Of a stretch of DNA of 64,000 nucleotides, positions 35,650 through 53,365 are shown one piece after another. The notes beneath the pieces were generated by a model. That model was not told where the DNA came from. It saw only the letters and a program-made list of their open reading frames with translations, and did not search any database. The DNA comes from a phage. How positions within the stretch are numbered: the stretch's first letter is position 1; each line of letters begins with the position of its first letter. Position numbers and translations under genes: made by a program. The stretch lies in assembly GCA_011884725.1 (NCBI GenBank), contig GCA_011884725.1_3919.1, one strand, 5' to 3'.

Positions 35650-35671
35650 AAAAAAGGCTCCCGAAGGAGCC
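35650..35671 (-). terminator. minus-strand rho-independent terminator GGCTCC-TTCG-GGAGCC + U-run (plus strand shows AAAAAA-GGCTCCCGAAGGAGCC)
   Basis: Direct read just downstream of the lysozyme gene on the minus strand. Confidence 0.65.
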
Positions 35672-35681
35672 TATGAAGATA

Positions 35682-36146
35682 TTACTTTGGATATACACTG
35701 TCAAGATAAATGTCAGCTTCCATTCTACGTCTATTTTTCAAGCCGTTTGAAGTTACCTTCTTACCTTTGACTGTAATCTTGTTCCACCACTGCATAGCTT
35801 CTGCACAACCTACCTTATTACCAGCATTGTGGCGCTTGATAAATGTAGAGTCCTGCATAGCTGTGATACCGATGTTATATGTTTCACTTACAAGTGCATC
35901 GAACTCATTCTGAGAAGTTGGAGCCTTGATAGCTTTGTTCACTGCTGCAACAAACTTTTCAACATCTGCGAGAAGATACTGTTCAGCTTGTTCAGCCGTG
36001 ATTTTCATACCCATCTTAACAGGTTTCCCGTCAATACGGATTGTACCATACCCGATTGTTGGGATTCCGGCAGAGTCTTCGTAAGCCTCTAACTCCAGAC
36101 CTTCGAAGAACTTAATAGCGTCTAAACCTTTTCTTGAGAGTTGCAT
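35682..36146 (-). CDS. endolysin, T4 e-type lysozyme (glycoside hydrolase family 24)
   Basis: 154 aa; FEGLELEAYEDSAGIPTIGYGT matches the catalytic Glu/Asp/Thr region of T4 lysozyme; minus-strand terminator immediately downstream. Confidence 0.8.
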   Translation of the reverse strand: MQLSRKGLDAIKFFEGLELEAYEDSAGIPTIGYGTIRIDGKPVKMGMKITAEQAEQYLLADVEKFVAAVNKAIKAPTSQNEFDALVSETYNIGITAMQDSTFIKRHNAGNKVGCAEAMQWWNKITVKGKKVTSNGLKNRRRMEADIYLDSVYPK

Positions 36147-37279
36147 TACGCCTCCCCTGCTGGGTTAACTGTAACTGTTGCTGCATTGGATGTTACAGAG
36201 CCACCTGCACCAGTAACTACACAGGTGTAGCTTCCTGCATCAGCAGCGGTTGCACCTTCTTTGGTGTAAGTTGCAGTAGTTGCATCGAGGATGTCTTCCT
36301 CACCTTTCTTCCATTGGTAACCTGTCGCACCTGTTGCCACAACATTCAGCGTTAAGGTCTCACCTTCAGTGATTTCTTGATTGGTTGGCTGTTGAGTGAT
36401 AACTGGTAAAGCTTTCACAGTAACGGTTGCAGGGTTAGAAGTGACAGAACCACCTGCACCTGTTACAACGCAAGTGTATGAACCTGCATCTGCTGGCAGA
36501 GCACCAGACTTACTATAGGTTGCATCTGTAGCCGAAGGAATGTCAGAGCTATCTTTCTCCCACTGATAACCTGTTGCACCTGTTGCAGTCACTTCCAAGT
36601 TGATGTTTCCACCCTCATTGACGGTCTGGCTAGAAGGTTGTTGTGTAATCACAGGCAGTGCGTTGACAGTAACTGTTGCCGCATCTGAGGTAACGCTTGT
36701 CCCAGCCTCTCCAGATACAACACAAGTGTATGAACCAGCATCAGAAGGTTCTACAGACTGTTTTGTGTAGGTTGCAGATGTGGCGCTAGTGATATCCTCA
36801 CCATCCTTTTTCCATTGATATCCAGTGGCATTAGTTGCAATAACACTTAGGGTAAGTGTACCACCTTCATTTACTGTTTGATTGGTTGGTTGCTGAGTGA
36901 TTGATGGTGGCTTGATAGCGTCCTTCAACTTAGCATTCAACATTGAGAATGGTTTAACTCTTGCCAGCCATTCACAATAAACTGTATCAACGTCTTTACC
37001 ATTGATAATTGCATATTGTAAGTCCATGAAGAAGTCAGAAGTTCTCATTTGAGCACCAACACTGTAAAGCAACTCATCACTAAATGGAACTTTGTAGTCT
37101 GGTTTATAGTCAAACTTCTCAACTTCTGCAATATCAGCTTCAGGCCAATACGAGCTATAGGTAAGTGGTAAAATAGCCTCTTGATATGTTCTAAAATCAT
37201 ATCTCTTACCAGCCTTTACGTTTGCAATGAAGCCCTTCACAAACTCTTTGAAGTCTGGGTAAGTCTTTGCTTTAATCAT
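36146..37279 (-). CDS. Ig-like repeat protein (Hoc-like candidate capsid decoration/adhesin)
   Basis: N-terminal domain paralogous to the adjacent 123 aa ORF, then three tandem Ig-like repeats each ending ...ADAGSYTCVV(T/S)G(A/E)(G/A)G(S/T)VTS(N/D)(A/P)ATVTV. Confidence 0.55.
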   Translation of the reverse strand: MIKAKTYPDFKEFVKGFIANVKAGKRYDFRTYQEAILPLTYSSYWPEADIAEVEKFDYKPDYKVPFSDELLYSVGAQMRTSDFFMDLQYAIINGKDVDTVYCEWLARVKPFSMLNAKLKDAIKPPSITQQPTNQTVNEGGTLTLSVIATNATGYQWKKDGEDITSATSATYTKQSVEPSDAGSYTCVVSGEAGTSVTSDAATVTVNALPVITQQPSSQTVNEGGNINLEVTATGATGYQWEKDSSDIPSATDATYSKSGALPADAGSYTCVVTGAGGSVTSNPATVTVKALPVITQQPTNQEITEGETLTLNVVATGATGYQWKKGEEDILDATTATYTKEGATAADAGSYTCVVTGAGGSVTSNAATVTVNPAGEA

Positions 37280-37647
37280 TTCTTTTCAGCCTCTAAATGT
37301 GCGTTTAGTCTAAAATAACCTTTGTGATTCGGAGATACATCACCAACGACAATACCTTTAACCTTATAGCCTTTACCAATTACATACTGGATATCCATAA
37401 GGAATCTTCCAAGACCAACAATATGGAACATTGGGTATAATAGATTCTCAGAGTCTGGAATATTGATTTCAGGTTTGTAGGTACGCTGTTCGCTTGTTGG
37501 TGTAATATCTTCTTCAGGCCATTTACTGAGTCTCCATGTCAAAGGTGTTGGGATAACATCATTAAGGTTGTACCTTTCACCATTTTGCACGGAATTGATA
37601 TAGGATTGTAGGAAGCAATAAAAGTCTTTTGCACTCTTAGCTTTCAT
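37276..37647 (-). CDS. hypothetical protein, paralog of the N-terminal domain of the Ig-repeat protein
   Basis: Alignable with N-terminus of the 36146-37279 protein (KAK..F..F......V..G.RY...WPE.DI...YKP...LLY...MD.QY). Confidence 0.5.
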   Translation of the reverse strand: MKAKSAKDFYCFLQSYINSVQNGERYNLNDVIPTPLTWRLSKWPEEDITPTSEQRTYKPEINIPDSENLLYPMFHIVGLGRFLMDIQYVIGKGYKVKGIVVGDVSPNHKGYFRLNAHLEAEKK

Positions 37648-37694
37648 TAAATATCCTTATAAATAGTTAAAGGGGCATAAGCCCCTATTCACAC

Positions 37695-38285
37695 TTAAGC
37701 TTTGGTCTTAAGTAGGTTCTTAAGTTTTTTAAGATTCATACTCTCATCAAACTTAAAACCAAATCCATTGACATAATCAATGAACTCGGATTTCTTACTG
37801 AGTGACAATGCGTAACTCATATCAAAGTTCTTGCTTGTTTCTGCGTCTGGACTAGAGTTCACATCAAATGAAATTTCCGTAGGCTCTTGCTTACTTTTTC
37901 TCATATTATCAACCAACAAACATGTATAGTTTGCTGGATAGAAATTTACACTACCATCAACGTAGCTATACTTATTATTATGGACAAGGTTGGAAAATAC
38001 CTTAAGGAATGTTTCTGAGTCGTGGCAAACAAGTTTGAATTGGCTGCTCTCTCCAAGCGCAACTAATGAATACGGACTTTCACTATCGAAGTGATAATTT
38101 GGATTCGATGCCGTTACTGTTACACGCATCAAGTTATTAGCAATAGTCTTCTGTTTAAAAGAATTTTGAACATAGTGAAGACCTCTATCACACTGATTGA
38201 CTAGCTCTTTAAGTAGGTCATTTGCATAAGGTGAGTTAATTGATACAGAGCCATCACTATTGTAATTAAAACTTACTGTTAACAT
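37695..38285 (-). CDS. hypothetical protein
   Basis: ORF track. Confidence 0.45.
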   Translation of the reverse strand: MLTVSFNYNSDGSVSINSPYANDLLKELVNQCDRGLHYVQNSFKQKTIANNLMRVTVTASNPNYHFDSESPYSLVALGESSQFKLVCHDSETFLKVFSNLVHNNKYSYVDGSVNFYPANYTCLLVDNMRKSKQEPTEISFDVNSSPDAETSKNFDMSYALSLSKKSEFIDYVNGFGFKFDESMNLKKLKNLLKTKA

Positions 38286-38904: not shown

Positions 38905-39276
38905 ATGAAAAACAGAACAAACAAAGGCCAGTTTAAAAAAGGCCAGTCTGGAAACCCATCTGGAAGACCGAAAGGCTCACGTAACAAAAGTTCACTCGTA
39001 AAAGCTCAACTGACCATTGATAATTCTGCTGAGTTTGCTGCAAAGTTGTTTGAAGCGATTGTTACAAGGGACGCTGCTAAGCTTGCAGAGTTCGGGTTAA
39101 ACACAGACGATGTAACCATCAAGAGCATGATTGAAGTCGGTAAAACCATCATGACTCACTCAGCAGGTGAGATGAAAGCAATTGCAGCAGACACTAAGAA
39201 GACCCCTGATAACGGTGGTCAGTCTCAGACAGATAACAAACCAACGTTCTCTGCTGTTGCAACCCTCAAAAAATAA
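38905..39276 (+). CDS. hypothetical protein with N-terminal GNPSGRPKG motif
   Basis: ORF track; AGAGG upstream; basic Gly/Pro-rich N-terminus. Confidence 0.5.
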   Translation: MKNRTNKGQFKKGQSGNPSGRPKGSRNKSSLVKAQLTIDNSAEFAAKLFEAIVTRDAAKLAEFGLNTDDVTIKSMIEVGKTIMTHSAGEMKAIAADTKKTPDNGGQSQTDNKPTFSAVATLKK

Positions 39277-39357: not shown

Positions 39358-40773
39358 ATGAGCGAATTATTTAAACATGCGCACCTTCATGCAGGTCGAA
39401 CTGAAAATGGTGCTGTAAACCATACTTCATCAATGTCTGCTCTTGTAGACTTTTACAAAGCTGCTGGTTCAAGCCGTAGCAATGTAGAAATCTTACCAGA
39501 CCTGTTCTACAAAGCTTTGCGTGAGGATGTTGATGTTGCAGTTCGTATTTTACTGCATATGCGAGATGTACGAGAAGGTATGGGTGAGCGTAAAGCCTTC
39601 AGAACTGTTTTACTTCAAGCGATTGAAGACAAAGTTTTAGAGCCTACGCAGGTTCTTCGCATTATGGATAAGATTGCAGAACTTGGTCGTTTTGATGACT
39701 TCAAAATCTTTGTAGGTACTCGTTTCGAGACAGATGCCTTCAAGCATTTAGAAGCAGCATTACTAGACCCTGCAACAGCAGGTTTGGCAGCTAAGTGGTT
39801 ACCACGAGTCAAACCACGTCATAAGCAGTTTGTAAAACGTTTCTGCAAGTTTGCCAACTTGAGCGAGAAAGAGTACCGCACACTGTTGTCTGCACTATCT
39901 GATACAGTTGAGCAAAAAATCTCTGCTAATGAGTTTGGTAAGATTGACTACAGTAAGATTCCTTCACTTGCTGCTGCACGCTACCAAAAACTGTTTAACC
40001 GTAAAGATGGAGAGCGATACAAAGCTTACATCGAGTCCTTATCAAAGGGTGAGGCTAAGATTAATGCTGGTGCTGTTTACCCATACGATGTGATTAAATC
40101 TGTCAAGCATGGTAATGCAGATGTTGCTAATGAGCAGTGGAAAGCACTACCAAACTGGATGGCAGAAGGTGAAAACATCTTGTGTATGTCTGATGTATCA
40201 AGTTCAATGTCTTGGGTGAATTTTGGCTCCATTACTGCTCTGGATATTGGTGTATCACTTGCCTTGTATGTAGCAGAACGCAATACAGGCTGCTTTAAGA
40301 ATGAGTTGATGGTTTATTCAACAAACCCTCACTTCATCGAACTGAGTGGTGATTTACGAAACCGTCATCGTCAGGTGATGCGACACGTTGAATATGGCTC
40401 AACTAACTTACAAGCAGCTTTTGACCGCATTCTTGAAACAGGTAAAAGAAACAACTTGACTCAGAAAGATATGCCAAGTAAGCTTATCATCTTCTCCGAT
40501 ATGGAGTTCAATCAGGTTGATGGAGCTAACGGTCGTACAAACTTTGAAGCAATTCAGAGTAAGTACAAAAAAGCTGGATATGAGATGCCACAACTGGTAT
40601 TCTGGTACTTAGCAAACCGTAATGGTACTTGCGAAGTGTCTGTTAAGGATAACGGTGTAGCAATGGTATCTGGTTTCTCTCCAGCCACTTTAAAAGCTCT
40701 GCTTGGTGGTGAGAAGTTTGACCCAATCAGCGTAATGCTCAAAGCAGTAATGATTGACCGTTATATCTGGTAA
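39358..40773 (+). CDS. vWA-domain protein with MIDAS motif
   Basis: 471 aa; C-terminal half has DxSxS (CMSDVSSSM) and a later IIFSDMEF acidic motif typical of von Willebrand A domains; helical N-terminal half. Confidence 0.55.
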   Translation: MSELFKHAHLHAGRTENGAVNHTSSMSALVDFYKAAGSSRSNVEILPDLFYKALREDVDVAVRILLHMRDVREGMGERKAFRTVLLQAIEDKVLEPTQVLRIMDKIAELGRFDDFKIFVGTRFETDAFKHLEAALLDPATAGLAAKWLPRVKPRHKQFVKRFCKFANLSEKEYRTLLSALSDTVEQKISANEFGKIDYSKIPSLAAARYQKLFNRKDGERYKAYIESLSKGEAKINAGAVYPYDVIKSVKHGNADVANEQWKALPNWMAEGENILCMSDVSSSMSWVNFGSITALDIGVSLALYVAERNTGCFKNELMVYSTNPHFIELSGDLRNRHRQVMRHVEYGSTNLQAAFDRILETGKRNNLTQKDMPSKLIIFSDMEFNQVDGANGRTNFEAIQSKYKKAGYEMPQLVFWYLANRNGTCEVSVKDNGVAMVSGFSPATLKALLGGEKFDPISVMLKAVMIDRYIW

Positions 40774-40938: not shown

Positions 40939-41015
40939 CTCTGTTTAGCTCAGCTTGGTAGAGCGTTCCGTTTGGGGCGGTAAGGCCGGAGGTTCAAGTC
41001 CTCCAACAGAGACCA
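40939..41015 (+). tRNA. tRNA-Pro (anticodon TGG)
   Basis: Acceptor CTCTGTT/AACAGAG, C1:G72, T-arm GGAGG-TTCAAGT-CCTCC, anticodon loop TTTGGGG, A73, encoded CCA. Confidence 0.75.
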
Positions 41016-41022
41016 AATTAAT

Positions 41023-41100
41023 GTTCCAGTAGACAAAATGGTAAAGTCACCACTCTTTCAAAGTGGATATCTGAGGGTTCAAATCCCTTCTGGAACGCCA
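41023..41100 (+). tRNA. tRNA-Glu (anticodon TTC)
   Basis: Acceptor GTTCCAG/CTGGAAC, anticodon stem CCACT/AGTGG loop CTTTCAA, T-loop TTCAAAT, G73, CCA. Confidence 0.75.
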
Positions 41101-41191
41101 GTTTTGACAGAAGACCAATTACAGCAAACTTAATCTTATTCATCTGAAGGTAAATCGGACAAAGAAGAGATTTGGTCTGGTCATTAAGAAT

Positions 41192-41268
41192 TGCGGGTAT
41201 AGAGAAAGGGCGTCTCACATGTCTCATTAGCATGGTATCGGCAGGTTCGACTCCTGCACCCGCCTCCA
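41192..41268 (+). tRNA. tRNA with CAT anticodon (Met or Ile2 type), atypical 5' region
   Basis: T-arm GCAGG-TTCGACT-CCTGC, 3' acceptor ACCCGCC, anticodon stem CATGT/GCATG loop CTCATTA; 5' acceptor has a 1:72 mismatch or an extra nt before the D-stem. Confidence 0.5.
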
Positions 41269-41352
41269 AATTTACAGAAGACCGTTTACAGCAAAATTGA
41301 ATGAAATTTTTAGCGGAAAAATTGAAAGATACGGTCTGGTAATACTAAACAT

Positions 41353-41426
41353 GGTTAGGAAGCACATAAGGTATGTGCGGTCGCCTGTTAAGCGAATGGC
41401 ACAGGGTTCGAATCCCTGACTAACCG
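41353..41426 (+). tRNA. tRNA-Asn (anticodon GTT)
   Basis: Acceptor GGTTAGG/ACTAACC, anticodon loop CTGTTAA, T-arm CAGGG-TTCGAAT-CCCTG, G73, no encoded CCA. Confidence 0.7.
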
Positions 41427-41438
41427 CAAAATTGAAAT

Positions 41439-41526
41439 GTGTCGTTATCCCGTAGATGGTAGCGGTGGGGACTGTAAATCCCTTGTCATTGAGACTCGGT
41501 AGGTTCGACTCCTACACGGCACACCA
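41439..41526 (+). tRNA. tRNA-Tyr (anticodon GTA), long variable arm
   Basis: 88 nt; acceptor GTGTCGT/ACGGCAC, anticodon loop CTGTAAA, T-arm GTAGG-TTCGACT-CCTAC, A73, CCA. Confidence 0.75.
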
Positions 41527-41531
41527 ATAAA

Positions 41532-41608
41532 GGCTATGTAGTTTAACTGGAGAAAATACTCCCCTGTCACGGGAGATGATGTGAGTTCAAGTCTCATCGT
41601 AGCCGCCA
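41532..41608 (+). tRNA. tRNA-Asp (anticodon GTC)
   Basis: Acceptor GGCTATG/CGTAGCC, anticodon stem CTCCC/GGGAG loop CTGTCAC, T-loop TTCAAGT, G73, CCA. Confidence 0.8.
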
Positions 41609-41837
41609 AATTATAATAAGTATTTCAAAATGATGTTTTGAGAGGGCTATTTAGCCCCTCCCTTAAAGAGTTCTTACGAGTATTCTTTAAAGGAGCAGAA
41701 GACCAAATACAGCAAGAATGTATGATATTTTCAAGCCAATCCAATTTTGAAAAAATTTAAAACTTGGTCTGGCTCAACAAATTTACAGAAGACCGTTTAC
41801 AGCAAAACTTAAACAATCTATTTCTCGGTAAAGAAAA

Positions 41838-41892
41838 GGCGAAGGTTCGATTCCTTCACTCGGCAGATGTCGAGTTGGTGTAATGGTAGCAC
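41838..41892 (+). pseudogene. tRNA remnant: 3'-half-like T-arm segment followed by 5'-half-like acceptor/D-arm segment, no intact cloverleaf
   Basis: GAAGG-TTCGATT-CCTTC-ACTCGGCA then GTCGAGTTGGTGTAATGGTAGCAC; no complementary acceptor partner found in correct order. Confidence 0.4.
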
Positions 41893-42065
41893 TTAAGATG
41901 ATAAACAACGGTCTGGTAATTATCTTTGTAGATAAGTTATTAAGCTTACCTGTGAGTATGCGACCACAAAGGGTGAAAGGGTAAATTCTAGATTTAAACC
42001 CAAAAAGGCACATCGCTACAGACCTTAAGCAAGTCTGGGTAGCTTATCTACAAAGATAATTTAAT

Positions 42066-42141
42066 GGAAGTGTAGCAGAATGGTGATGCGGCAGACTTTT
42101 AATCTGACAGGCGATGGGTTCGAATCCCTCCACTTCTACCA
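42066..42141 (+). tRNA. tRNA-Lys (anticodon TTT)
   Basis: Acceptor GGAAGTG/CACTTCT, anticodon loop CTTTTAA, T-loop TTCGAAT, A73, CCA; weak T-stem shared with the CTT Lys tRNA. Confidence 0.65.
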
Positions 42142-42145
42142 ATAT

Positions 42146-42222
42146 GGTTCAGTCGCAGATAAGGTAATGCAAGGGTCTCATAAGCCCTATGAATGTGGGT
42201 TCGATTCCCATCTGAACCTCCA
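42146..42222 (+). tRNA. tRNA-Met (anticodon CAT)
   Basis: Acceptor GGTTCAG/CTGAACC, anticodon stem AGGGT/GCCCT loop CTCATAA, T-arm GTGGG-TTCGATT-CCCAT, CCA. Confidence 0.75.
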
Positions 42223-42223
42223 A

Positions 42224-42299
42224 GCTGGTATAGTTAAGAAGGTTATAACACTCCCCTGATAAGGGAACATCGGTGGTTCGATTCCACCTACCAGTACCA
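42224..42299 (+). tRNA. tRNA-Ile (anticodon GAT)
   Basis: Acceptor GCTGGTA/TACCAGT, anticodon loop CTGATAA, T-arm GGTGG-TTCGATT-CCACC, A73, CCA. Confidence 0.7.
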
Positions 42300-42314
42300 A
42301 TTTCAATAAAGTTG

Positions 42315-42343
42315 TTGACATTGAGATGTGACTACTTTATAGT
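42315..42343 (+). promoter_or_regulatory. strong sigma70-like promoter TTGACA-17-TATAGT inside the tRNA cluster
   Basis: Direct read; followed by about 200 bp without ORF or tRNA before tRNA-Arg. Confidence 0.55.
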
Positions 42344-42545
42344 AACCTTAGTTTTCGTTGCGTAGCGTCTATTTTGCAAATTTAAAATAAATGCAAACGA
42401 CAATGTTTTTCTGGCAGTAGCTTGATAGGCTAAACACCAGTGAGGTCTTCCAATCCCTCATCAAAGAATTTGGCGTACTCGCCCACGGTATGATTAATAA
42501 GGTGGGCATCTTTAAGGGCTTTCTAAGAGAGTCTTTAAAGATAAT

Positions 42546-42622
42546 GCACCCTTAGTTCAATTGGATAGAGCAACGGTCTTCTAAATCGTTAGTTACAGGT
42601 TCGAATCCTGTAGGGTGTACCA
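42546..42622 (+). tRNA. tRNA-Arg (anticodon TCT)
   Basis: Acceptor GCACCCT/AGGGTGT, D-arm GTTCAATTGGATAGAGC, anticodon stem ACGGT/ATCGT loop CTTCTAA, T-loop TTCGAAT, A73, CCA. Confidence 0.8.
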
Positions 42623-42764
42623 AATAGTTAGCAGATTACTTAGACGGCCTTAGCGGGTCTTCCTGTAGGGAGGTGGTCTGTATCTCATGTTTTCCAGAAC
42701 ATGTAAATAATCTGAGAAGAAGCTTGACAGTGTTGAGATAACAGGGTAAGCTTCGAATTATAAT

Positions 42765-42847
42765 ATGGGACGATGTTAAGACTCTAAGGCATGAGCAACG
42801 GCCTCCAAAACCGTTTCAAAGGGGTTCAACTCCTCCGTCCCATGCCA
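42765..42847 (+). tRNA. tRNA-Trp (anticodon CCA) with enlarged D region
   Basis: Perfect acceptor ATGGGAC/GTCCCAT, anticodon stem ACGGC/ACCGT loop CTCCAAA, T-loop TTCAACT, G73, CCA; about 7 extra nt between acceptor and anticodon stem. Confidence 0.55.
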
Positions 42848-42860
42848 AAGTCTTATTAGG

Positions 42861-42948
42861 GGTAGGTAGCGGCTAATGGTAGCCAAACTGTCTTGAAAAC
42901 AGTTGCCACTGTAGAGATACGGTGAGGGTTCGACTCCTTTACTTACCG
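42861..42948 (+). tRNA. tRNA-Ser (anticodon TGA), long variable arm
   Basis: 88 nt; acceptor GGTAGGT/ACTTACC, anticodon stem ACTGT/ACAGT loop CTTGAAA, T-loop TTCGACT, G73. Confidence 0.7.
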
Positions 42949-43104
42949 CCTAATAAGATTTACTCCGTCCATGCTTGTTCGCATTGTCGGTTTATCCCTC
43001 GTGTATTGTCGTACACTGTCAAAGCACCTAGTAGGTGTCACGGAGAAGAGATAATATCAAGCTCTCCAAAGGTTCTAGTCACCGGATTAAACAAGACTAT
43101 GCAA

Positions 43105-43124
43105 AGACCTATTTAGGTCTTTTT
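43105..43124 (+). terminator. terminator-like hairpin AGACCT-ATTT-AGGTCT + TTTT inside tRNA cluster
   Basis: Direct read. Confidence 0.45.
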
Positions 43125-43204
43125 AGAGGGCTTCTAAGGTTATTAGTCGCTTGTTGTGGAACCTTGTTGCTTAGGTTCTTAGAAGTTCTCTAAAAAGATT
43201 TAAT

Positions 43205-43282
43205 GGGAGATTGACGGTAATTGGTAAACCTACCATCCTTAGAAGTTGGTGTTTGAGGGTTCGAATCCCTTGTCTCCTACCA
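43205..43282 (+). tRNA. tRNA with Leu-type anticodon TAG but short variable arm
   Basis: Acceptor GGGAGAT/GTCTCCT (two G-U pairs), D-loop AATTGGTAAA, anticodon loop CTTAGAA, T-arm GAGGG-TTCGAAT-CCCTT, A73, CCA. Confidence 0.5.
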
Positions 43283-43289
43283 AATTAAT

Positions 43290-43365
43290 GCAGGTGTAGC
43301 AAAATGGTTATGCGGCTGACTCTTAATCAGTAAGACGATGGGTTCAATTCCCTCCACCTGTACCA
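43290..43365 (+). tRNA. tRNA-Lys (anticodon CTT)
   Basis: Acceptor GCAGGTG/CACCTGT, anticodon stem GCTGA/TCAGT loop CTCTTAA, T-loop TTCAATT, A73, CCA. Confidence 0.65.
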
Positions 43366-43371
43366 AACATT

Positions 43372-43447
43372 GGGGATGTAGTTTACATGGTTAAAACATA
43401 AGTTTTGCAAACTTAAGTACAGGGTTCAATTCCCTGCTTCTCCACCA
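43372..43447 (+). tRNA. tRNA-Ala (anticodon TGC)
   Basis: G3:U70 pair in acceptor, anticodon stem TAAGT/ACTTA loop TTTGCAA, T-arm CAGGG-TTCAATT-CCCTG, A73, CCA. Confidence 0.7.
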
Positions 43448-43453
43448 ATTAGT

Positions 43454-43528
43454 GCATCCATAGTTTAAACGGGAAAATTACAGTCTTCCAAACTGAGGTT
43501 GAGGGTTCGATTCCCTCTGGATGCTCCA
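43454..43528 (+). tRNA. tRNA-Gly (anticodon TCC)
   Basis: Perfect acceptor GCATCCA/TGGATGC, anticodon loop CTTCCAA, T-arm GAGGG-TTCGATT-CCCTC, U73, CCA. Confidence 0.8.
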
Positions 43529-43534
43529 AACAAT

Positions 43535-43611
43535 GCTGCTTTCGTATAATTGGCTATTACACATCCCTTGTAAGGATGGAAATGCAGGTTCGAGTCCTGT
43601 GAGCAGCACCA
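43535..43611 (+). tRNA. tRNA-Thr (anticodon TGT)
   Basis: Acceptor GCTGCTT/GAGCAGC, anticodon stem CATCC/GGATG loop CTTGTAA, T-loop TTCGAGT, A73, CCA. Confidence 0.8.
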
Positions 43612-43707
43612 ATTCAGAGGTCAAGTGAAAGACCGCTTTGAGTCAACTGAAGACCGTAACAAATACCACGGAGTTGAGTTAGCGGCACAACTTCAGACCT
43701 CTTTCAT

Positions 43708-43782
43708 ACTCGCTTAGTTTATATGGTAAAACATCACCCTTACAAGATGAAGAAAAAGGTTCAAGTCCTTTAGTGAGTACCA
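43708..43782 (+). tRNA. tRNA-Val (anticodon TAC)
   Basis: Acceptor ACTCGCT/AGTGAGT, anticodon loop CTTACAA, T-arm AAAGG-TTCAAGT-CCTTT, A73, CCA. Confidence 0.65.
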
Positions 43783-43783
43783 T

Positions 43784-43861
43784 GTTCCAGTATCCCAATT
43801 GGCAGAGGATGCAAGCTCAAACCTTGTATTAGTGACGGTTCGAATCCGTCTTGGAACACCA
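43784..43861 (+). tRNA. tRNA with Leu-type anticodon CAA but short variable arm
   Basis: Acceptor GTTCCAG/TTGGAAC, D-loop AATTGGCAGAGGA, anticodon stem GCAAG/CTTGT loop CTCAAAC, T-arm GACGG-TTCGAAT-CCGTC, A73, CCA. Confidence 0.55.
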
Positions 43862-43866
43862 ATTTT

Positions 43867-43942
43867 GCAGGATTAGTTCAAATGGAAAGAGCAACAGTCT
43901 ACGAAGCTGTTAATAGGGGTTCGAATCCCTTATCCTGCGCCA
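43867..43942 (+). tRNA. tRNA-Arg (anticodon ACG)
   Basis: Perfect acceptor GCAGGAT/ATCCTGC, anticodon stem ACAGT/GCTGT loop CTACGAA, T-loop TTCGAAT, G73, CCA. Confidence 0.8.
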
Positions 43943-43959
43943 GATAAAAAGGTGATACT

Positions 43960-44202
43960 ATGCAAACATTAACAGTAGTTGAACATGAAAACTGTGAGAG
44001 TATTGAGTTTGTCAGGGTCATTGGTGTTGAACACCACATTTTCTTAAAAGTGGGATACTTATGTGACCCCGCTAGAGTAGAAAGATTTATACGTGATTGT
44101 TTTGGTGGTAGACATCTGAAGAGTGTTATTTTTGAGACAGTTTTACCAGAAGGTTTAGAAACGAATAATAACATTTACCTCCTTACGAGGATTAGACAAT
44201 GA
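43960..44202 (+). CDS. hypothetical protein (inside tRNA cluster)
   Basis: ORF track; AAAGGTGA upstream. Confidence 0.5.
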   Translation: MQTLTVVEHENCESIEFVRVIGVEHHIFLKVGYLCDPARVERFIRDCFGGRHLKSVIFETVLPEGLETNNNIYLLTRIRQ

Positions 44203-44756
44203 GATACTTAAAGTATGCTTCATGGATTTTCTTAGCTTTGTTAGAGCCATTTGCAGCAATCTTAGCAGTTATCTTAGCACCTTTTGTAGTTCCATTCTAC
44301 AGTGAGAAGAAAGGACACTTACCTTTCGGGTTCAGATGGATGGAGACATATGACAACCCAATTGATGGTGATGAAGGTCACGTTAAAAGATGGGCTAATA
44401 TTAGATGGATTGGTAAACTAGGTGTCTACATGCAAAGAGTCGGATGGCTCTGGAGAAACAAAGCTTATAACTTCTCTTACCATGTATTAGGAAGAGATGT
44501 AAGAGATGTTACTAAGTGGAAAGGTAATATCAACGTAAGTTCTAACCCTGAAGATAATCAGACTGGTTATCTCCTAATGTGGAACAGTAATGCTTGGGGA
44601 TTATTCGCTTTTATCCCATCAATTAAAGTCTTCGGTAAACAGTTTTACTGGAGAATTTATGTTGGATGGAAACTTAAAAGTGTTGTCCCAGAAGAAAGAG
44701 CATTCTCAAGGGAAAGAGTTATGTTGGCATTCTTTATTCATCCACTGAGAAAGTAA
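44199..44756 (+). CDS. hypothetical membrane protein (inside tRNA cluster)
   Basis: ORF track; N-terminal hydrophobic segment WIFLALLEPFAAILAVILAPFVVPF; Trp-rich. Confidence 0.5.
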   Translation: MRYLKYASWIFLALLEPFAAILAVILAPFVVPFYSEKKGHLPFGFRWMETYDNPIDGDEGHVKRWANIRWIGKLGVYMQRVGWLWRNKAYNFSYHVLGRDVRDVTKWKGNINVSSNPEDNQTGYLLMWNSNAWGLFAFIPSIKVFGKQFYWRIYVGWKLKSVVPEERAFSRERVMLAFFIHPLRK

Positions 44757-44764
44757 AGATTTAA

Positions 44765-44840
44765 AGGGGATTAGTTTACAAGGTTAAAACCTCGGTCTTT
44801 GAAATCGAAGAAGTTGGTTCAATTCCAACATCCCCCGCCA
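44765..44840 (+). tRNA. tRNA-Gln (anticodon TTG)
   Basis: Anticodon stem TCGGT/ATCGA loop CTTTGAA, T-arm GTTGG-TTCAATT-CCAAC, unpaired 1:72 and G73, CCA. Confidence 0.7.
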
Positions 44841-44842
44841 AT

Positions 44843-44921
44843 GCTCCATTACTCCAATTGGCAGAGAGGCCAGACTTAAAATCTGTGTTATGTATCGGTT
44901 CGAATCCGATATGGAGTACCA
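44843..44921 (+). tRNA. tRNA with Leu-type anticodon TAA but short variable arm
   Basis: Acceptor GCTCCAT/ATGGAGT, D-loop AATTGGCAGAGAG (paralogous to the CAA tRNA), anticodon loop CTTAAAA, T-arm ATCGG-TTCGAAT-CCGAT, A73, CCA. Confidence 0.55.
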
Positions 44922-44926
44922 AATTT

Positions 44927-45002
44927 AGCGGTATAGCATAACTGGCAATGCAGCAGTCTCTGAAGCTGTCCTATTAAGGTTCAAATCCTTATGCCGCTGC
45001 CA
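44927..45002 (+). tRNA. tRNA-Gln (anticodon CTG)
   Basis: Acceptor AGCGGTA/TGCCGCT, anticodon stem GCAGT/GCTGT loop CTCTGAA, T-arm TAAGG-TTCAAAT-CCTTA, G73, CCA. Confidence 0.7.
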
Positions 45003-45033
45003 CTTCTAAGGATTCTTACGAGAGTCCTTAAAT

Positions 45034-45109
45034 GTGGCCTTATCATAAATGGTAATGACCCATGCTGTGAACATGGTCTATACGGGTTCAAATCCCGTAG
45101 GTCACCCCA
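45034..45109 (+). tRNA. tRNA-His (anticodon GTG)
   Basis: Acceptor GTGGCCT/AGGTCAC, perfect anticodon stem CCATG/CATGG loop CTGTGAA, T-loop TTCAAAT, C73, CCA. Confidence 0.8.
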
Positions 45110-45114
45110 ATTTA

Positions 45115-45191
45115 TAGTCCAAGTAGCTTATATGGTTAAAGCGCGTGTCTGAAAAACATGAGAAGAGGGTTCAAATCCCACTGGACTACCA
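45115..45191 (+). tRNA. tRNA-Phe (anticodon GAA)
   Basis: Acceptor TAGTCCA/TGGACTA, anticodon stem CGTGT/ACATG loop CTGAAAA, T-loop TTCAAAT; exact 3' end ambiguous by 2 nt. Confidence 0.65.
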
Positions 45192-45207
45192 ATTTCAAAG
45201 GTGCTTA

Positions 45208-45942
45208 ATGAAAGAGATGACAGAACAAGGTAAGGAGATTTTCAATCTCTTAAAAACCGGTAAAGGGTTTTCTAACCCCCTTATTACTGGTGCAGCAGTT
45301 CTCGGTGGAACCGTAGCTGCCTCTACATCACTTGTAAGCTCTATTAGCTCTGTATCAGACCCTACAGTAAAGGATAAGCTTGTTGCTGCTGGACTTACAA
45401 CAGTTCTGCTTAACAGCTTTACCACGAGTCTGACAAGCACTACATCAACTACCAAAACACTAACAGATTACGGTCAAAAGTCCATTGATGAGTTTTCATC
45501 ACGTATGCAGGTAGCAAAAGGTTACTCTAATGTTATGGGTGCAGCAGGTGAACAAGTTGGCTGTACACCATTTAGTGGTATTATGGGTGTTGCTACAGAG
45601 TATGGTCAAAAAACTATTGATACGATTAACAGTGTACTAGATAGTGTTAATGGTGTGTTAAGTGACTTACAAGATGCTATTGACAAAGGTCTTGATACTA
45701 TTTCTGATTTAGCTGAGCAAGCTGTTAGTAAGATTAATGAAGGTATTTCAAAAATTACAGCTTATGCAGATGAAGTTGTGCAGATGATTGAAGAAGAAGC
45801 TGCTCTTATTGCAGAGTACCTTAAAACGAATATCAATGGGTTCTTAGCAGGTATCTTACCAGACTGGTTTGATGATGCTTGTAAAACTGGTGTAATTGAC
45901 ACTATTGCAACACCAGAAATGAAGAACGCATTACAGAAATAA
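45208..45942 (+). CDS. hypothetical Ser/Thr-rich protein
   Basis: Start set to ATG 45208 (track ORF start 45145 lies inside the tRNA-Phe gene); stop 45940-45942 sits 2 nt before a tRNA. Confidence 0.45.
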   Translation: MKEMTEQGKEIFNLLKTGKGFSNPLITGAAVLGGTVAASTSLVSSISSVSDPTVKDKLVAAGLTTVLLNSFTTSLTSTTSTTKTLTDYGQKSIDEFSSRMQVAKGYSNVMGAAGEQVGCTPFSGIMGVATEYGQKTIDTINSVLDSVNGVLSDLQDAIDKGLDTISDLAEQAVSKINEGISKITAYADEVVQMIEEEAALIAEYLKTNINGFLAGILPDWFDDACKTGVIDTIATPEMKNALQK

Positions 45943-45944
45943 AT

Positions 45945-46037
45945 GGAAGATTAACCCTAAAAGGTAAGGGAGCAGTTTGCTAAACTGCCAGTAGCTGAGA
46001 AATCGGTGTACCAGTTCAAGTCTGGTATCTTCCTCCA
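45945..46037 (+). tRNA. tRNA-Ser (anticodon GCT), long variable arm
   Basis: 93 nt; perfect acceptor GGAAGAT/ATCTTCC, perfect anticodon stem GCAGT/ACTGC loop TTGCTAA, T-arm ACCAG-TTCAAGT-CTGGT, CCA. Confidence 0.7.
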
Positions 46038-46041
46038 ATTT

Positions 46042-46117
46042 GAATCCGTGACAGAAACGGCTATGTGCCTGTCTGCAAAACAGGTTTATAAGGGTTCGAG
46101 TCCCTTCGGATTCTCCA
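46042..46117 (+). tRNA. tRNA-Cys (anticodon GCA)
   Basis: Perfect acceptor GAATCCG/CGGATTC, perfect anticodon stem CCTGT/ACAGG loop CTGCAAA, T-arm AAGGG-TTCGAGT-CCCTT, U73, CCA. Confidence 0.8.
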
Positions 46118-50489: not shown

Positions 50490-51836
50490 ATGAGTTCGAA
50501 TATCTTCAGACTTGCTGATAGATTATTCAACCAACCTTTACTAGCCACTGAATCATTAGCTCACTCAGCAGCAACTTATGTGAATAACAGATTGCTGGGT
50601 GATGTCCAAGCAGCAGTAAACTTTGATAAACCCAAAGGTGACGCAAGAAGTCTTTTAAAAGTAAAAGATGACATTGCTATTATCCCTATTATGGGTGGTT
50701 TAACTCATCGTATGACGTTCATTGATGCAATGTGTACAGGTGGATTAAGCTCTTATGAGGGTTTACGTAGAGGCTTTGACGAAGCTTTAGCAGATGAGTC
50801 AATCAAGACTATTGTTCTGCATATTGATTCTGGTGGTGGTGAAGCTTCAGGTTGCTTTGAATTAGCACGTCACATCATGGCTTCAAGAGGCCAAAAGAAA
50901 ATTATTGCTTATGTAGATGAGTTCGCTTGTTCCGCTGCATATGCTCTTGCATCTTCTGCTGAAGAAATTATTGCATCACCAGATGCAGATGTTGGTTCTA
51001 TTGGTGTAATCATGGTTCATCAGGAATTAACTAAGGCATTTGAAAAGAATGGCGTAACAATTAACGTCATCAAAGCTGGTGAGTTTAAAGGTATGGGTTC
51101 ACCATTCCAAGCACTTTCAGAAGAAAGCAAAGAAAGACTTCAAAAGAGAATTAATGATACCTACGCAACCTTTACAGGTTTTGTAGCTGAAGCTCGTAAT
51201 ATCTCTGAAGAAGCTGTAAAGAATACTGAGGCGAATGTTTATTCTGCTCAGGAAGCTCTTGAACTTGGTTTAATTAACTCAATCATGTCTCAAGATGATT
51301 TCTTAAATTACTTACAAGGTTCTGAAGAGGCTCCTGTAAGTTTAAACGTTAACAATTCAGGTGAAGAAATGACTGAACAAGAAAAGCAAGAACTAGAAGC
51401 TTTGCGTCTTCAGGTTGCTCAAATGAAAGCTAAAGAACAGGAAGCTGCTTTGTCAGATTTGACTAATAAGATTTCTGCTTCTGCTGAAGCTTTTGGATTT
51501 GATGCAAAAGAAGCTGCAACGACTATTTTAGGTGCTGGTCTTGATAACCCTCTGAGTGTTCTGTTTATGAATGCTATGGAAGGTGCTAACCAGAAACTTA
51601 ATGAAACTATCGCGTCCCATGCTTCTGCAATGGAAGAAAAAGAATCAGAAATTACCAAGCTGAAAGAAACTGCTGGTGCTGTTCTTGAACATTCCAACGC
51701 TATGGAAGAAGTGGGTAATGACGGCGAAGCTGATTTAGTTGAAGAAGAAAAAGAACCAGCTAAGAATGCTTCCGAAGACACCGCTGAACAACGCAAACTG
51801 GCTCTCCAGAATGCTCTAAAATCTCTTATCAAATAA
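50490..51836 (+). CDS. prohead protease (S49/ClpP-like) fused to scaffolding-like coiled-coil domain
   Basis: N-terminal peptidase-like region (IPIMGGL..., IDSGGGEASG, FACSAAYALAS) then Glu/Ala/Lys-rich helical C-terminus. Confidence 0.65.
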   Translation: MSSNIFRLADRLFNQPLLATESLAHSAATYVNNRLLGDVQAAVNFDKPKGDARSLLKVKDDIAIIPIMGGLTHRMTFIDAMCTGGLSSYEGLRRGFDEALADESIKTIVLHIDSGGGEASGCFELARHIMASRGQKKIIAYVDEFACSAAYALASSAEEIIASPDADVGSIGVIMVHQELTKAFEKNGVTINVIKAGEFKGMGSPFQALSEESKERLQKRINDTYATFTGFVAEARNISEEAVKNTEANVYSAQEALELGLINSIMSQDDFLNYLQGSEEAPVSLNVNNSGEEMTEQEKQELEALRLQVAQMKAKEQEAALSDLTNKISASAEAFGFDAKEAATTILGAGLDNPLSVLFMNAMEGANQKLNETIASHASAMEEKESEITKLKETAGAVLEHSNAMEEVGNDGEADLVEEEKEPAKNASEDTAEQRKLALQNALKSLIK

Positions 51837-51847
51837 GGAACACAATA

Positions 51848-52225
51848 ATGGCATATCAAGGTTTTACTAAGTTAGGTAAAAGAGAACCTCTGAATGATAT
51901 CATTCTTTGGGAACAGGTTACCCCAACAGGCCACTCTCGTAAAGAGTACACCCCACAGGCATCTACAGAATATCGTGTAGGTGAAGTTCTGAAAGCAGAT
52001 GGTACTAAAGTTGCAGCAGGGGAAGAAGCTCAGGCTGATTCTGTATGTATCGTTAACTTTTATGCAGACCTGCAACTGTCTTACCACGGTCAGTTGAAAG
52101 TTGTTGGTATTTACCGTGACGCAGAACTGAAAGACATGCTGACTCTTGAGTCTGGTGTTAATGCCGAGAGCGTCAAGACAGCTCTGGCTGCTAAAGGTAT
52201 TGATTTCGTACCAACTGGCCTGTAA
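51848..52225 (+). CDS. possible head decoration protein
   Basis: 125 aa between protease and capsid gene; assignment by position only. Confidence 0.35.
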   Translation: MAYQGFTKLGKREPLNDIILWEQVTPTGHSRKEYTPQASTEYRVGEVLKADGTKVAAGEEAQADSVCIVNFYADLQLSYHGQLKVVGIYRDAELKDMLTLESGVNAESVKTALAAKGIDFVPTGL

Positions 52226-52258: not shown

Positions 52259-53365
52259 ATGTTGACTAATTCTGAAAAAAGCAGATTTTTCCTTGCTGAC
52301 CTGACTGGTGAAGTCCAGTCTATCCCAAATACTTATGGGTATATTTCCAACTTAGGTCTGTTCCGTTCAGCACCAATCACCCAAACTACTTTCCTTATGG
52401 ACTTGACTGATTGGGATGTTAGCTTGCTTGATGCGGTAGACCGTGATAGCCGTAAAGCAGAGACTAGCGCACCTGAGCGTGTTCGTCAAATCAGCTTCCC
52501 AATGATGTACTTCAAAGAAGTTGAAAGCATTACTCCTGATGAAATTCAGGGTGTACGTCAGCCAGGCACTGCAAACGAACTGACTACTGAAGCTGTAGTA
52601 CGTGCTAAGAAGCTGATGAAGATTCGTACCAAGTTCGATATTACTCGTGAGTTCCTGTTTATGCAAGCTCTGAAGGGTAAAGTTGTTGATGCTCGTGGTA
52701 CTCTGTATGCTGACCTGTACAAGCAGTTCGACGTTGAGAAGAAGACTGTTTACTTCGACCTTGACAACCCTAATGCTGACATCGACGCTTCTATTGAAGA
52801 ACTGCGTATGCACATGGAAGACGAAGCTAAGACTGGCACTGTAATCAACGGTGAAGAAATTCACGTAGTTGTTGACCGTGTATTCTTCAGCAAGCTGACT
52901 AAACACCCTAAGATTCGTGATGCCTATCTTGCACAGCAGACCCCACTGGCTTGGCAACAGATTACTGGTTCTCTGAGAACTGGTGGTACTGACGGCGTTC
53001 AGGCTCACATGAACACTTTCTACTACGGTGGTGTTAAGTTTGTCCAGTACAACGGTAAGTTCAAAGACAAGCGTGGTAAGGTTCATACTCTGGTGAGCAT
53101 TGATGGTGCTGGTGCAGAGGTTGGTGTAGGACACGCTTTCCCTAACGTTTCTATGCTGGGTGAAGCAAACAACATCTTCGAAGTGGCTTATGGCCCATGC
53201 CCTAAGATGGGTTACGCAAATACACTTGGTCAGGAACTGTATGTATTCGAATACGAAAAAGACCGTGATGAAGGTATTGACTTCGAAGCTCACTCTTACA
53301 TGCTGCCATACTGTACTCGTCCTCAGTTGCTGGTAGACGTTCGTTCTGACGCTAAAGACGAATAA
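52259..53365 (+). CDS. major capsid protein
   Basis: 368 aa after protease/scaffold; GGAGA upstream; assignment by position and size. Confidence 0.6.
   Translation: MLTNSEKSRFFLADLTGEVQSIPNTYGYISNLGLFRSAPITQTTFLMDLTDWDVSLLDAVDRDSRKAETSAPERVRQISFPMMYFKEVESITPDEIQGVRQPGTANELTTEAVVRAKKLMKIRTKFDITREFLFMQALKGKVVDARGTLYADLYKQFDVEKKTVYFDLDNPNADIDASIEELRMHMEDEAKTGTVINGEEIHVVVDRVFFSKLTKHPKIRDAYLAQQTPLAWQQITGSLRTGGTDGVQAHMNTFYYGGVKFVQYNGKFKDKRGKVHTLVSIDGAGAEVGVGHAFPNVSMLGEANNIFEVAYGPCPKMGYANTLGQELYVFEYEKDRDEGIDFEAHSYMLPYCTRPQLLVDVRSDAKDE

Follow-up and report, generated by a model that had tools for sequence, protein, structure and literature searches.

The question raised by this locus is what two adjacent paralogous genes, one of them extended by a string of Ig-like repeats, are doing beside a phage lysozyme. 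Both lie on the minus strand of the window, that is, the whole 64,000-nucleotide stretch of phage DNA analyzed here, at 36146..37279 (377 aa) and 37276..37647 (123 aa), exactly where the initial annotation had placed them. The source phage is a Felixounavirus. We assign the 377-aa gene, with a probability of about 0.85 within an overall explanation that also covers the smaller paralog, to the Felixounavirus Hex-Dec, a Hoc-like decoration protein of capsid hexamer centers and an ortholog of Sf14 gp20.

The paralog, Hex-Dec, and an endolysin of the T4-lysozyme family (35682..36146, minus strand; Pfam Phage_lysozyme, E 4e-40) form a unit of three overlapping genes, the endolysin being the last, with a hairpin at each boundary. 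The paralog and Hex-Dec reading frames have 4 nt in common (ATGA), and Hex-Dec shares a single nucleotide with the start of the lysozyme gene (TAATG). The unit is closed by a terminator-like hairpin with a T-run (35655..35672, minus strand), whose wV8 equivalent is annotated as a Rho-independent terminator. At the opposite end, the hairpin GGGGC-TTAT-GCCCC (37672..37685, minus strand), read from the sequence, separates the paralog from an upstream gene of 196 aa. It is retained in REP11 and Moogle, and the wV8 annotation likewise lists it as a Rho-independent terminator; the consensus terminator scan made no call on it because of the weak T-run. The 196-aa gene has neither a solved-structure match nor a Pfam family, hence no link to the virion was made. 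An Rfam scan of 33-40 kb gave zero matches, and the plus-strand open reading frames across the region were rejected as short antisense artefacts. Judging only from its endolysin and virion-protein content, the unit is presumably late. As first remarked, Hex-Dec is grouped with the lysozyme and not with the morphogenesis genes, and about 15 kb, including a cluster of 26 tRNAs, separate it from the gene of the major capsid protein (MCP; 52259..53365, plus strand; 9ncf_A, E 1e-245; 9c2d_A, E 5e-233). The second decoration protein of the capsid, the beta-tulip trimeric Dec, is encoded at 51848..52225, plus strand (9ncf_J, E 3e-74; 9c2d_J, E 9e-72).

The assignment of the 377-aa protein is based on nearly full-length phmmer matches to two solved virion chains, 9ncf_S (E 1.3e-299) and 9c2d_S (E 2.7e-167), membership in PHROG 3995 (E 2e-208), and 96-99% DNA identity with wV8 gene 41 and LMP34, and it is on these 96-99% identical relatives that the case for the phage of the window rests. 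Searched on its own, the capsid-binding domain (CapBD; aa 1-123, 36911..37279, minus strand) again matches these two chains in the PDB, at E 1.7e-79 and 1.5e-69, and nothing else that is credible. In Bas63 and Sf14, Hex-Dec and gp20 were solved by cryo-EM (maps EMD-49251 and EMD-45155, respectively) as monomers that occupy, in a T=9 head, the centers of those hexamers that lie next to the pentamers (PMC12609058, PMC11821841), and it is for these two phages only that occupancy of the quasi-threefold hexamer centers is known by this method (PMC12609058, PMC11821841). The arginines R79 and R107 form salt bridges with D221 of the MCP, and the site specificity was ascribed to a shifted D221 geometry in the threefold hexamers (PMC11821841). 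Both arginines are present in the window (AQMR79TSDF and WLAR107VKPF) and invariant in 12 orthologs, and the MCP of the window, 99% identical to that of Bas63, retains D221 (KIRD221AYL in the alignment). Of the features of the Ounavirinae Hex-Dec/Sf14 gp20, the window has the CapBD, the R79/R107/D221 triad, the Ig string, and the gene position outside the structural module and just upstream of the endolysin.

Because of the homology to the solved structures, the N-terminal domain of about 120 aa is predicted to plug, as a monomer, 60 pentamer-proximal (quasi-threefold) hexamer centers of the T=9 head, where salt bridges between the two arginines and D221 would hold it in place and three flexible I-set Ig domains would point outward. 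The initial proposal of a Hoc-like capsid decoration protein with Ig repeats is thus supported by orthologs seen on capsids (PMC12609058, PMC11821841). It also agrees with virion proteomics, as mass spectrometry detected the orthologs Felix O1 gp36 in Felix O1 virions and gp20 in Sf14 virions (PMC11821841). By analogy with T4 Hoc, as the literature proposes, the Ig string may let the virion adhere weakly and multivalently to mucus, glycans, or the surface of cells, or else control virion aggregation. The Hoc-like interpretation of Hex-Dec, its capsid site and anchor residues, the odd gene location outside the morphogenesis module, and the variation from one to four Ig domains were all published in 2025 for Bas63 and Sf14, so that little is new about the protein itself.

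The three Ig-like domains occupy aa 125-208 (36656..36907), 209-291 (36407..36655), and 292-374 (36158..36406), all on the minus strand, the third being terminal. Three repeats had indeed been predicted for the larger paralog, but they measure 84, 83, and 83 aa (252, 249, and 249 nt), not 88 aa and 264 bp. Pairwise identity between the repeats is 69-70% in protein and 62-67% in DNA, compared with 47.6 +/- 1.6% for shuffled sequences, and the near-identical endings noticed earlier correspond to a motif, DAGSYTCVV(T/S)G..(S)VTS.(A/P)ATVTV, found towards the C-terminal end of all three. In the DNA, the repeat signal is weak: it comprises only three-copy families of 36-41 nt with a spacing of 249/252 nt, and Tandem Repeats Finder reported no array, since the repeats are too diverged in DNA. 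They were therefore defined from the protein.

The Ig-like nature of the repeats, for which structure prediction had been suggested as a check, is supported by both profiles and models. Three stretches each were matched by Ig_3 (115.3 bits, E 2e-33, cutoff 30), Ig_2 (94.2 bits, cutoff 27), and I-set (89.5 bits, E 1.5e-25, cutoff 23.7), the cutoffs being the curated Pfam gathering thresholds; domain 1 was recognized by Ig_3 and I-set, the best Ig_2 stretch in domain 2 was 209-288, and domain 3 was delimited by Pfam and the predicted structure. The repeats were predicted as beta-sandwiches with pLDDT >90, and their best structural matches are the Ig tandems of titin, Robo, and LRIG1. The anchor domain in the full-length AlphaFold2 model is unreliable (pLDDT 30-50) and was excluded from structural conclusions.

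The number of repeats varies among related phages, as the comparison proposed at the outset brought out: Hex-Dec proteins of 210, 294, 377, and 460 aa carry one to four Ig copies. The orthologs from Felix O1 and REP11 have chimeric junction domains, and Ig3 of the window is 98% identical to Ig4 of Bas63, its second half being identical to Ig2 of Felix O1. The copy-number series and the chimeric junctions indicate, at the level of sequence comparison, that in-register recombination between repeats alters the Ig copy number. Nearly all matches listed in a word-indexed search for CapBD homologs were one-Ig proteins of about 210 aa, which is not an estimate of the frequency of Ig numbers. A match in P0105, a protein of 632 aa with five short repeated matches, was judged spurious and due to low complexity.

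The 123-aa protein is the less familiar member of the pair. The shared N-terminal domain of about 120 aa, already recognized in the initial annotation, was recovered by BLASTP (37/101 identities, 37%, E 9e-17) and by reciprocal matches of each protein to the PHROG family of the other (E 2e-16 and 5e-15); 28 alignment columns are invariant across both families. The paralog is a full-length member of PHROG 4463 (E 1.7e-79; Felix O1 gp37, wV8 gp42, bas63_0125) and has no Pfam family. In the PDB it matches 9ncf_S (E 1.2e-11) and 9c2d_S (E 5e-11), and these two chains are also the only Foldseek matches (TM 0.58, prob 1.00) of its AlphaFold2 model, which is of moderate quality (pLDDT 68) and contains two long helices. 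We take it to be an ancient tandem copy of the anchor domain, one that either lost its Ig domains or never had any. In front of one distant CapBD-Ig gene (L010) lies a 141-aa gene that is CapBD-like over its first 39 residues only (hhalign prob 20%) and was not counted as a paralog.

Both anchor arginines appear to have been exchanged for a different invariant surface: R79 is replaced by G78, and R107 by N, Q, or H, in all paralogs, while the segment 71-80 (YPMFHIVGLG) is 100% invariant among them and shares one residue of ten with CapBD. The predicted pI is 8.6, compared with 6.3 for CapBD. Since both arginines are replaced, we regard the protein as a structural relative of CapBD and not as a demonstrated capsid binder. 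The conserved surface and the basic pI would also fit binding to the acidic hexamer center in the virion.

The paralog is 70-97% identical across Felixounavirus, Mooglevirus, and Suspvirus, and its position is kept in wV8, Felix O1, BPS17W1, Bas63, Moogle, SUSP1, and one divergent metagenomic contig. Purifying selection (dN/dS 0.10-0.19, even where dS is saturated) argues that it is functional, and pseudogenization in some phages argues that it is dispensable. For instance, the REP11 copy has lost its start codon and carries a deletion of about 220 nt and frameshifts, and approximately 20 of 253 phage records (~8%) have no full-length match. The relationship between the paralog and the Hex-Dec anchor is not discussed in either structure paper (PMC12609058, PMC11821841).

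The proteins detected in Felix O1 virions include gp36 and some of 9.7-13 kDa, but not gp37, and, as far as the main text of the VpaE1 report indicates, ORF40 is not among its 22 detected virion proteins. Similarly, no chain of the solved virions except those of Hex-Dec matches the paralog, although Bas63 encodes it. This absence from proteomes and reconstructions is negative evidence, as these methods could overlook a protein that is present in few copies, loosely attached, or averaged out by symmetry. Our best guess, at low confidence and roughly even odds, is that the virion does not contain the paralog in stoichiometric amounts and that it acts inside the cell, where it would bind capsid hexamers or Hex-Dec transiently while the head matures. 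It is doubtful, though worth stating, that it is an unrecognized player in head decoration, either a plug for the 20 true-threefold hexamers or an intracellular factor that would cap hexamers or serve as a chaperone of Hex-Dec; as an intracellular factor it would set where and when the Ig fiber is mounted.

The least improbable of the competing explanations makes the paralog a second, Ig-less plug that would sit on the 20 true-threefold hexamers closed to Hex-Dec, so that every hexamer of the T=9 shell would be decorated. Such a role is improbable, though its CapBD fold family, its divergence from Hex-Dec exactly in the MCP-contact segments, which are invariant within the paralog family, the exclusion of Hex-Dec from threefold hexamers, which was attributed to the shift of D221, the translational coupling of the two genes, and the basic pI are all consistent with it. 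Both structure papers see no density on the other hexamers (PMC12609058, PMC11821841), the protein was undetected in Felix O1 virions and, to judge from the text, in VpaE1 virions, and its loss in REP11-like phages is without apparent harm. A plug at the threefold hexamers, if any, may have been missed through icosahedral averaging or lost during purification.

A placement in the tail is very improbable as well. One Bas63 gene product is unassigned and the baseplate map contains unassigned C3 density at the tip of the puncturing apparatus, which the paralog, with its two long helices, might occupy at three copies per virion, a number that could escape proteomics; this is a mere coincidence of features, however, and both the fold, that of a capsid-hexamer anchor, and the position of the gene outside the baseplate module speak against it. 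Still less probable is that the gene is a decaying duplicate without function. The REP11 pseudogene, the ~8% of records without a full-length match, and the lack of a Pfam family could be read that way, but decay hardly accounts for a constant length of 122-124 aa in all three genera, the low dN/dS, the 77 of 123 positions invariant in 11 representatives, or the retention of the pair in a lineage whose divergent paralog (P0098) forms a separate 50%-identity cluster, and neither dN/dS near 1 nor frequent frameshifts across lineages are observed.

Least credible of all is that the 377-aa protein belongs to the tail, as stated in most GenBank records, PHROG 3995 ("tail protein"), and the Felix O1 paper ("major tail protein", "HK97 major tail subunit", with gp36 labelled as tail) and as suggested by matches of the Ig region to "major tail protein" PHROGs, since these matches are limited to promiscuous Ig domains, the capsid reconstructions (9NCF, 9C2D), with the orthologs at hexamer centers, refute it, and the Bas63 authors explicitly call the tail annotation wrong (PMC12609058). 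Most database records nevertheless still say tail protein, and the gene in the window deserves the annotation of a hexamer decoration protein. A paper on Gifsy and Felix O1 resistance does not cover the Hex-Dec and paralog genes.

With an N-terminal anchor, a free C-terminus, and 60 copies per head, Hex-Dec is a natural display scaffold, and the gain and loss of Ig units by recombination implies that cargo of different sizes is tolerated. The neighboring paralog is conserved and under selection, and natural knock-outs such as REP11, with REP5 and Z31 as further phages lacking the paralog, make its role cheap to test. If it does take part in head decoration, Hex-Dec would be the first decoration protein for which a separate anchor-only protein serves as dedicated partner.

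Among known systems, the closest is Hex-Dec of Bas63 (9NCF chain S, bas63_0124), of the same family and genus: CapBD is about 98% identical and shares R79 and R107, Ig1, Ig2, and Ig3 of the window correspond to Ig1, Ig2, and Ig4 of Bas63 at 95, 90, and 98% identity, and the gene order paralog, Hex-Dec, endolysin is the same. The fourth Ig domain of Bas63, inserted between Ig2 and Ig3 of the window, occurs in Bas63 only among 483 matching phage records. Sf14 gp20 from a Shigella phage of the genus Mooglevirus (9C2D/9C3A chain S) is an ortholog (E 3e-167) with three Ig domains, on which the contacts of R79 and R107 with D221 and the quasi-threefold restriction were defined (PMC11821841). Compared by eye with the window, its CapBD is well conserved and its Ig domains much less so, and its three-Ig state is probably of independent origin according to the authors' phylogeny (PMC11821841). 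The T5 decoration protein pb10 (5LXK, 8ZVI) has a single Ig domain similar to those of Hex-Dec (E 1e-10), but its anchor is not detectably related to CapBD. For PHROG 4463, the family of the paralog, no function is described.

T4 Hoc and Hex-Dec are alike in being hexamer-center monomers with a small globular anchor, an acidic fiber, and an Ig string of variable number (PMC12609058), and the PHROG profiles for Hoc-like head decoration match only aa 121-290, that is, the Ig region. The anchor is C-terminal in Hoc and N-terminal in Hex-Dec, where it is also larger, topologically distinct, and pseudo-C2 symmetric (PMC12609058), and a sequence search of the PDB with CapBD, at E up to 10, matched no Hoc chain. 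Every hexamer of the prolate T=13 head carries Hoc; on the T=9 head, with its 80 hexamers, only 60 carry Hex-Dec. Hex-Dec thus works like T4 Hoc, yet is not a member of the Hoc family, given its reversed domain order and unrelated anchor.

The 377-aa protein encoded at 36146..37279 (-) matches two capsid chains over nearly its full length in a search of all PDB chains: 9NCF chain S of Bas63 (E 1.3e-299), named "immunoglobulin-like domain protein", and 9C2D/9C3A chain S of Sf14 (E 2.7e-167), named "tail protein". Both belong to cryo-EM capsid reconstructions published in 2025, so a decoration protein with Ig domains was already known, named Hex-Dec in Bas63 and gp20 in Sf14; it is a monomer whose N-terminal 118-122 residues lie in the hexamer centre of a T=9 head, its occupancy is confined to the quasi-threefold hexamers, those proximal to the pentamers, and the flexible Ig-like domains are not resolved in the maps (PMC12609058, PMC11821841). 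In Sf14, residues R79 and R107 of this anchor are salt-bridged to D221 in three of the six capsid subunits (PMC11821841). Both arginines are present in the Hex-Dec of the window and invariant among orthologs, and D221 is retained in its major capsid protein (52259..53365), which is 99% identical to that of Bas63. Mass spectrometry of purified virions detected the orthologs Felix O1 gp36, a 31.6-kDa "tail protein", and Sf14 gp20 (PMC11821841). It is nearly certain that the Hex-Dec of the window sits on the 60 quasi-threefold hexamers, held by R79/R107-D221 contacts. Most records, like PHROG 3995, label it a "tail protein"; this is a mis-annotation of historical origin, a point made by the Bas63 authors themselves (PMC12609058).

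The initial annotation had described two adjacent minus-strand genes with a common N-terminal domain of about 120 aa, the larger one extended by three Ig-like repeats. Two ORFs occupy its coordinates exactly, namely hex-dec and, at 37276..37647 (-), an anchor-only paralog of 123 aa, and the common domain is evident from an alignment of 101 residues at 37% identity (E 9e-17); in representatives of the two families together, 28 columns do not vary. The three tandem repeats (aa 125-208, 209-291, and 292-374) are present as well, but measure 84, 83, and 83 aa, that is, 252, 249, and 249 nt, slightly less than the 88 aa and 264 bp given earlier. They are 69-70% identical in protein and 62-67% in DNA (47.6 +/- 1.6% for shuffled sequence); their claimed visibility in DNA holds for short three-copy seeds at 249/252-nt spacing and is weak overall, and Tandem Repeats Finder detected no array across the Ig-repeat DNA. 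The Ig-like fold is borne out by Pfam hits to Ig_3, Ig_2, and I-set, all far above threshold, and by a ColabFold model in which the repeats form beta-sandwiches (pLDDT above 90), structurally closest to the Ig tandems of LRIG1, Robo, and titin (E 6e-21 to 7e-19; TM 0.59 for titin I67-I69). The anchor domain is poorly predicted in this model (pLDDT 30-50), as the Sf14 authors also remark, and that part was not used. The observation is thus confirmed with the repeat size corrected.

In the proposed comparison of repeat number, relatives carry one, two, three, or four Ig units, a range already in print (PMC12609058, PMC11821841). Many metagenomic proteins and phage HK3 have one unit (~210 aa); Felix O1, VpaE1, Moogle, SUSP1, REP11, and the metagenomic contig L007 have two (293-298 aa); the window, wV8, BPS17W1, and Sf14 have three (377 aa, 372 in Sf14), and Bas63 has four (460 aa). 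In a domain-by-domain comparison, Bas63 Ig1, Ig2, and Ig4 are the counterparts of Ig1, Ig2, and Ig3 of the window (95, 90, and 98% identity). Of 483 matching records, none but Bas63 has its extra third unit, and the closest relative of that unit, at 81% identity, is in Citrobacter phage KMM2. The Felix O1 Ig2 is a chimera of the ~32 first residues of Ig2 of the window and the remainder of Ig3 (41/42 identical), and the REP11 Ig1 is an Ig1/Ig2 chimera; both junctions fall within the conserved ATGATGYQW core, so Ig units are lost by in-register recombination between repeats, with the first and last units kept, and are presumably gained in the same way. This mechanism for Ig number is a small new increment.

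The 3' end of the paralog gene overlaps the start of hex-dec (ATGA), and hex-dec in turn runs into the start of the next gene, a T4-type lysozyme (35682..36146, -; TAATG). The paralog gene is immediately preceded by a GC-rich hairpin (37672..37685) and the lysozyme gene is followed by a hairpin with a T-run (35655..35672), and the equivalent sites in phage wV8 carry Rho-independent terminator annotation. Given these overlaps and flanking hairpins, the three genes look like a single transcription unit. Across the paralog/hex-dec region, an Rfam scan gave no overlapping families and no plus-strand ORF is a credible gene. Around the pair, 2.7 kb align at 98.6% identity with E. coli phages vB_EcoM_LMP25/33/34 and at 96% with wV8; the 242 phage records that match are virtually all Felix O1-like (Ounavirinae). 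One record labelled "Staphylococcus phage" amid these otherwise enterobacterial phages, SA1, is probably mislabelled or contaminated; its protein ACZ55588.1 shares 99% identity with the paralog's ortholog in VpaE1. The pair lies away from the morphogenesis module, as noted initially: the head genes, an S49 prohead protease-like gene (50490..51836), a beta-tulip decoration protein (51848..52225), and the major capsid protein gene, are ~15 kb off. The boundary between the leftward block and the head genes is a cluster of 26 tRNAs (40939-46117, +), including two each of Met, Lys, Arg, Gln, and Ser and three Leu; reported counts are 23 in wV8 and 22 in Felix O1. Adjoining it is a divergently transcribed pair, at 39358-40773 (+) and 38905-39276 (+), kept in all relatives examined: one product has 471 aa with DUF2828 and DUF7788 ("RNA-binding protein" in relatives), and the second product, of 123 aa, belongs to DUF5681.

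The paralog, a full-length member of PHROG 4463, a family without described function, lies directly upstream of hex-dec in all six phages compared (wV8, Felix O1, BPS17W1, Bas63, Moogle, and SUSP1) and is 70-97% identical and always 122-124 aa long across Felixounavirus, Mooglevirus, and Suspvirus. The same order is found in a divergent metagenomic contig, with its paralog in a different cluster at 50% identity. With dN/dS of 0.10-0.19, versus 0.03-0.05 for the Hex-Dec anchor, it is clearly under purifying selection, looser than that on the anchor. Its AF2 model is moderate (pLDDT 68, pTM 0.70) and matches only the two Hex-Dec anchors among solved structures (TM 0.58). The anchor arginines are replaced (R79 by G, R107 by N/Q/H), and the segment around the R79 position, YPMFHIVGLG, is 100% invariant in 11 representatives of three genera, yet has 1/10 residues in common with Hex-Dec, which suggests a different, constrained putative binding surface rather than decay.

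Searched with a profile built from the two families, 1.8 billion representative proteins gave only 13 sequences. In the distant homologs, the anchor is combined with Big_2 or Big-like domains, with one Ig domain, or with a short tail of charged residues. One distant phage fragment has a homolog of the upstream 196-aa gene, an anchor+Big_2 gene, and lysozyme, without the paralog; the decoration-lysozyme linkage therefore predates the duplication, and the copy that consists of the anchor alone is a lineage-specific tandem duplicate. The order ~200-aa gene, decoration protein, lysozyme was recorded at L009:248-1724 and L007:3368-5726. The 196-aa gene itself (37695..38285), persistently linked to the decoration protein-lysozyme unit, has no Pfam family and no solved-structure match. 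Directly upstream of a distant anchor-Ig gene, a 141-aa gene (L010:1739-2164) begins MLKAKQYDSFEE..., like the anchor N-terminus; the likeness covers only 39 residues (hhalign probability 20%), and the gene is a possible anchor-only partner of independent or very ancient origin.

Neither structure paper mentions the paralog or the names of the neighbouring genes (PMC12609058, PMC11821841). Among Felix O1 virion proteins gp37, the paralog, was not detected, while gp36 and several 9.7-13 kDa proteins were; its VpaE1 ortholog, ORF40, is absent from the 22 virion proteins, by inference from the text. The paralog would be absent from the virion or transient, with hexamers or Hex-Dec as its target during head maturation (probability about 0.5), and an unrelated intracellular role takes the remainder left by the following readings. 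The remaining hexamers have empty centres in both Bas63 and Sf14 (PMC12609058, PMC11821841), and no chain in the models of either phage matches the paralog, though Bas63 encodes it; a plug of the 20 true-threefold hexamers is accordingly an improbable role. The Bas63 virion has one gene product not assigned to a gene, a C3 density at the puncturing-apparatus tip with two helices per 120 degrees (PMC12609058); candidates for it are conserved late proteins of small size, among them the paralog, which is a very doubtful one. Least probable of all, given the invariant segment, is a functionless remnant, even though the paralog is a pseudogene in REP11 (L003:2306-2497; ATG to ATA, an internal deletion of ~220 nt, frameshifts) and ~20 of 253 Felix O1-like records match via the Hex-Dec anchor domain with no full-length paralog match. 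From these losses the paralog is dispensable, and such phages are natural knock-outs open to phenotyping. Documented but unexplained, it is a further small new increment, with cheap and well-defined follow-up.

The suggestion of a Hoc-like decoration protein is supported by the hexamer-centre orthologs; the likeness is one of mode of action, not of family. Like T4 Hoc, Hex-Dec sits as a monomer in the hexamer centre on a small anchor and bears a fibre of Ig domains that is acidic (pI 4.05 for the Ig part), and we are moderately confident that it would act, in a Hoc-like way, in adherence to the environment or in controlling aggregation; for the whole family, we infer such a role of the Ig fibre by analogy. 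Unlike Hoc, whose anchor is C-terminal, Hex-Dec has an N-terminal anchor, which matches none of the PDB's Hoc or pb10 chains in sequence and has a different topology of pseudo-twofold symmetry (PMC12609058), and hence Hex-Dec is not a member of the Hoc family.
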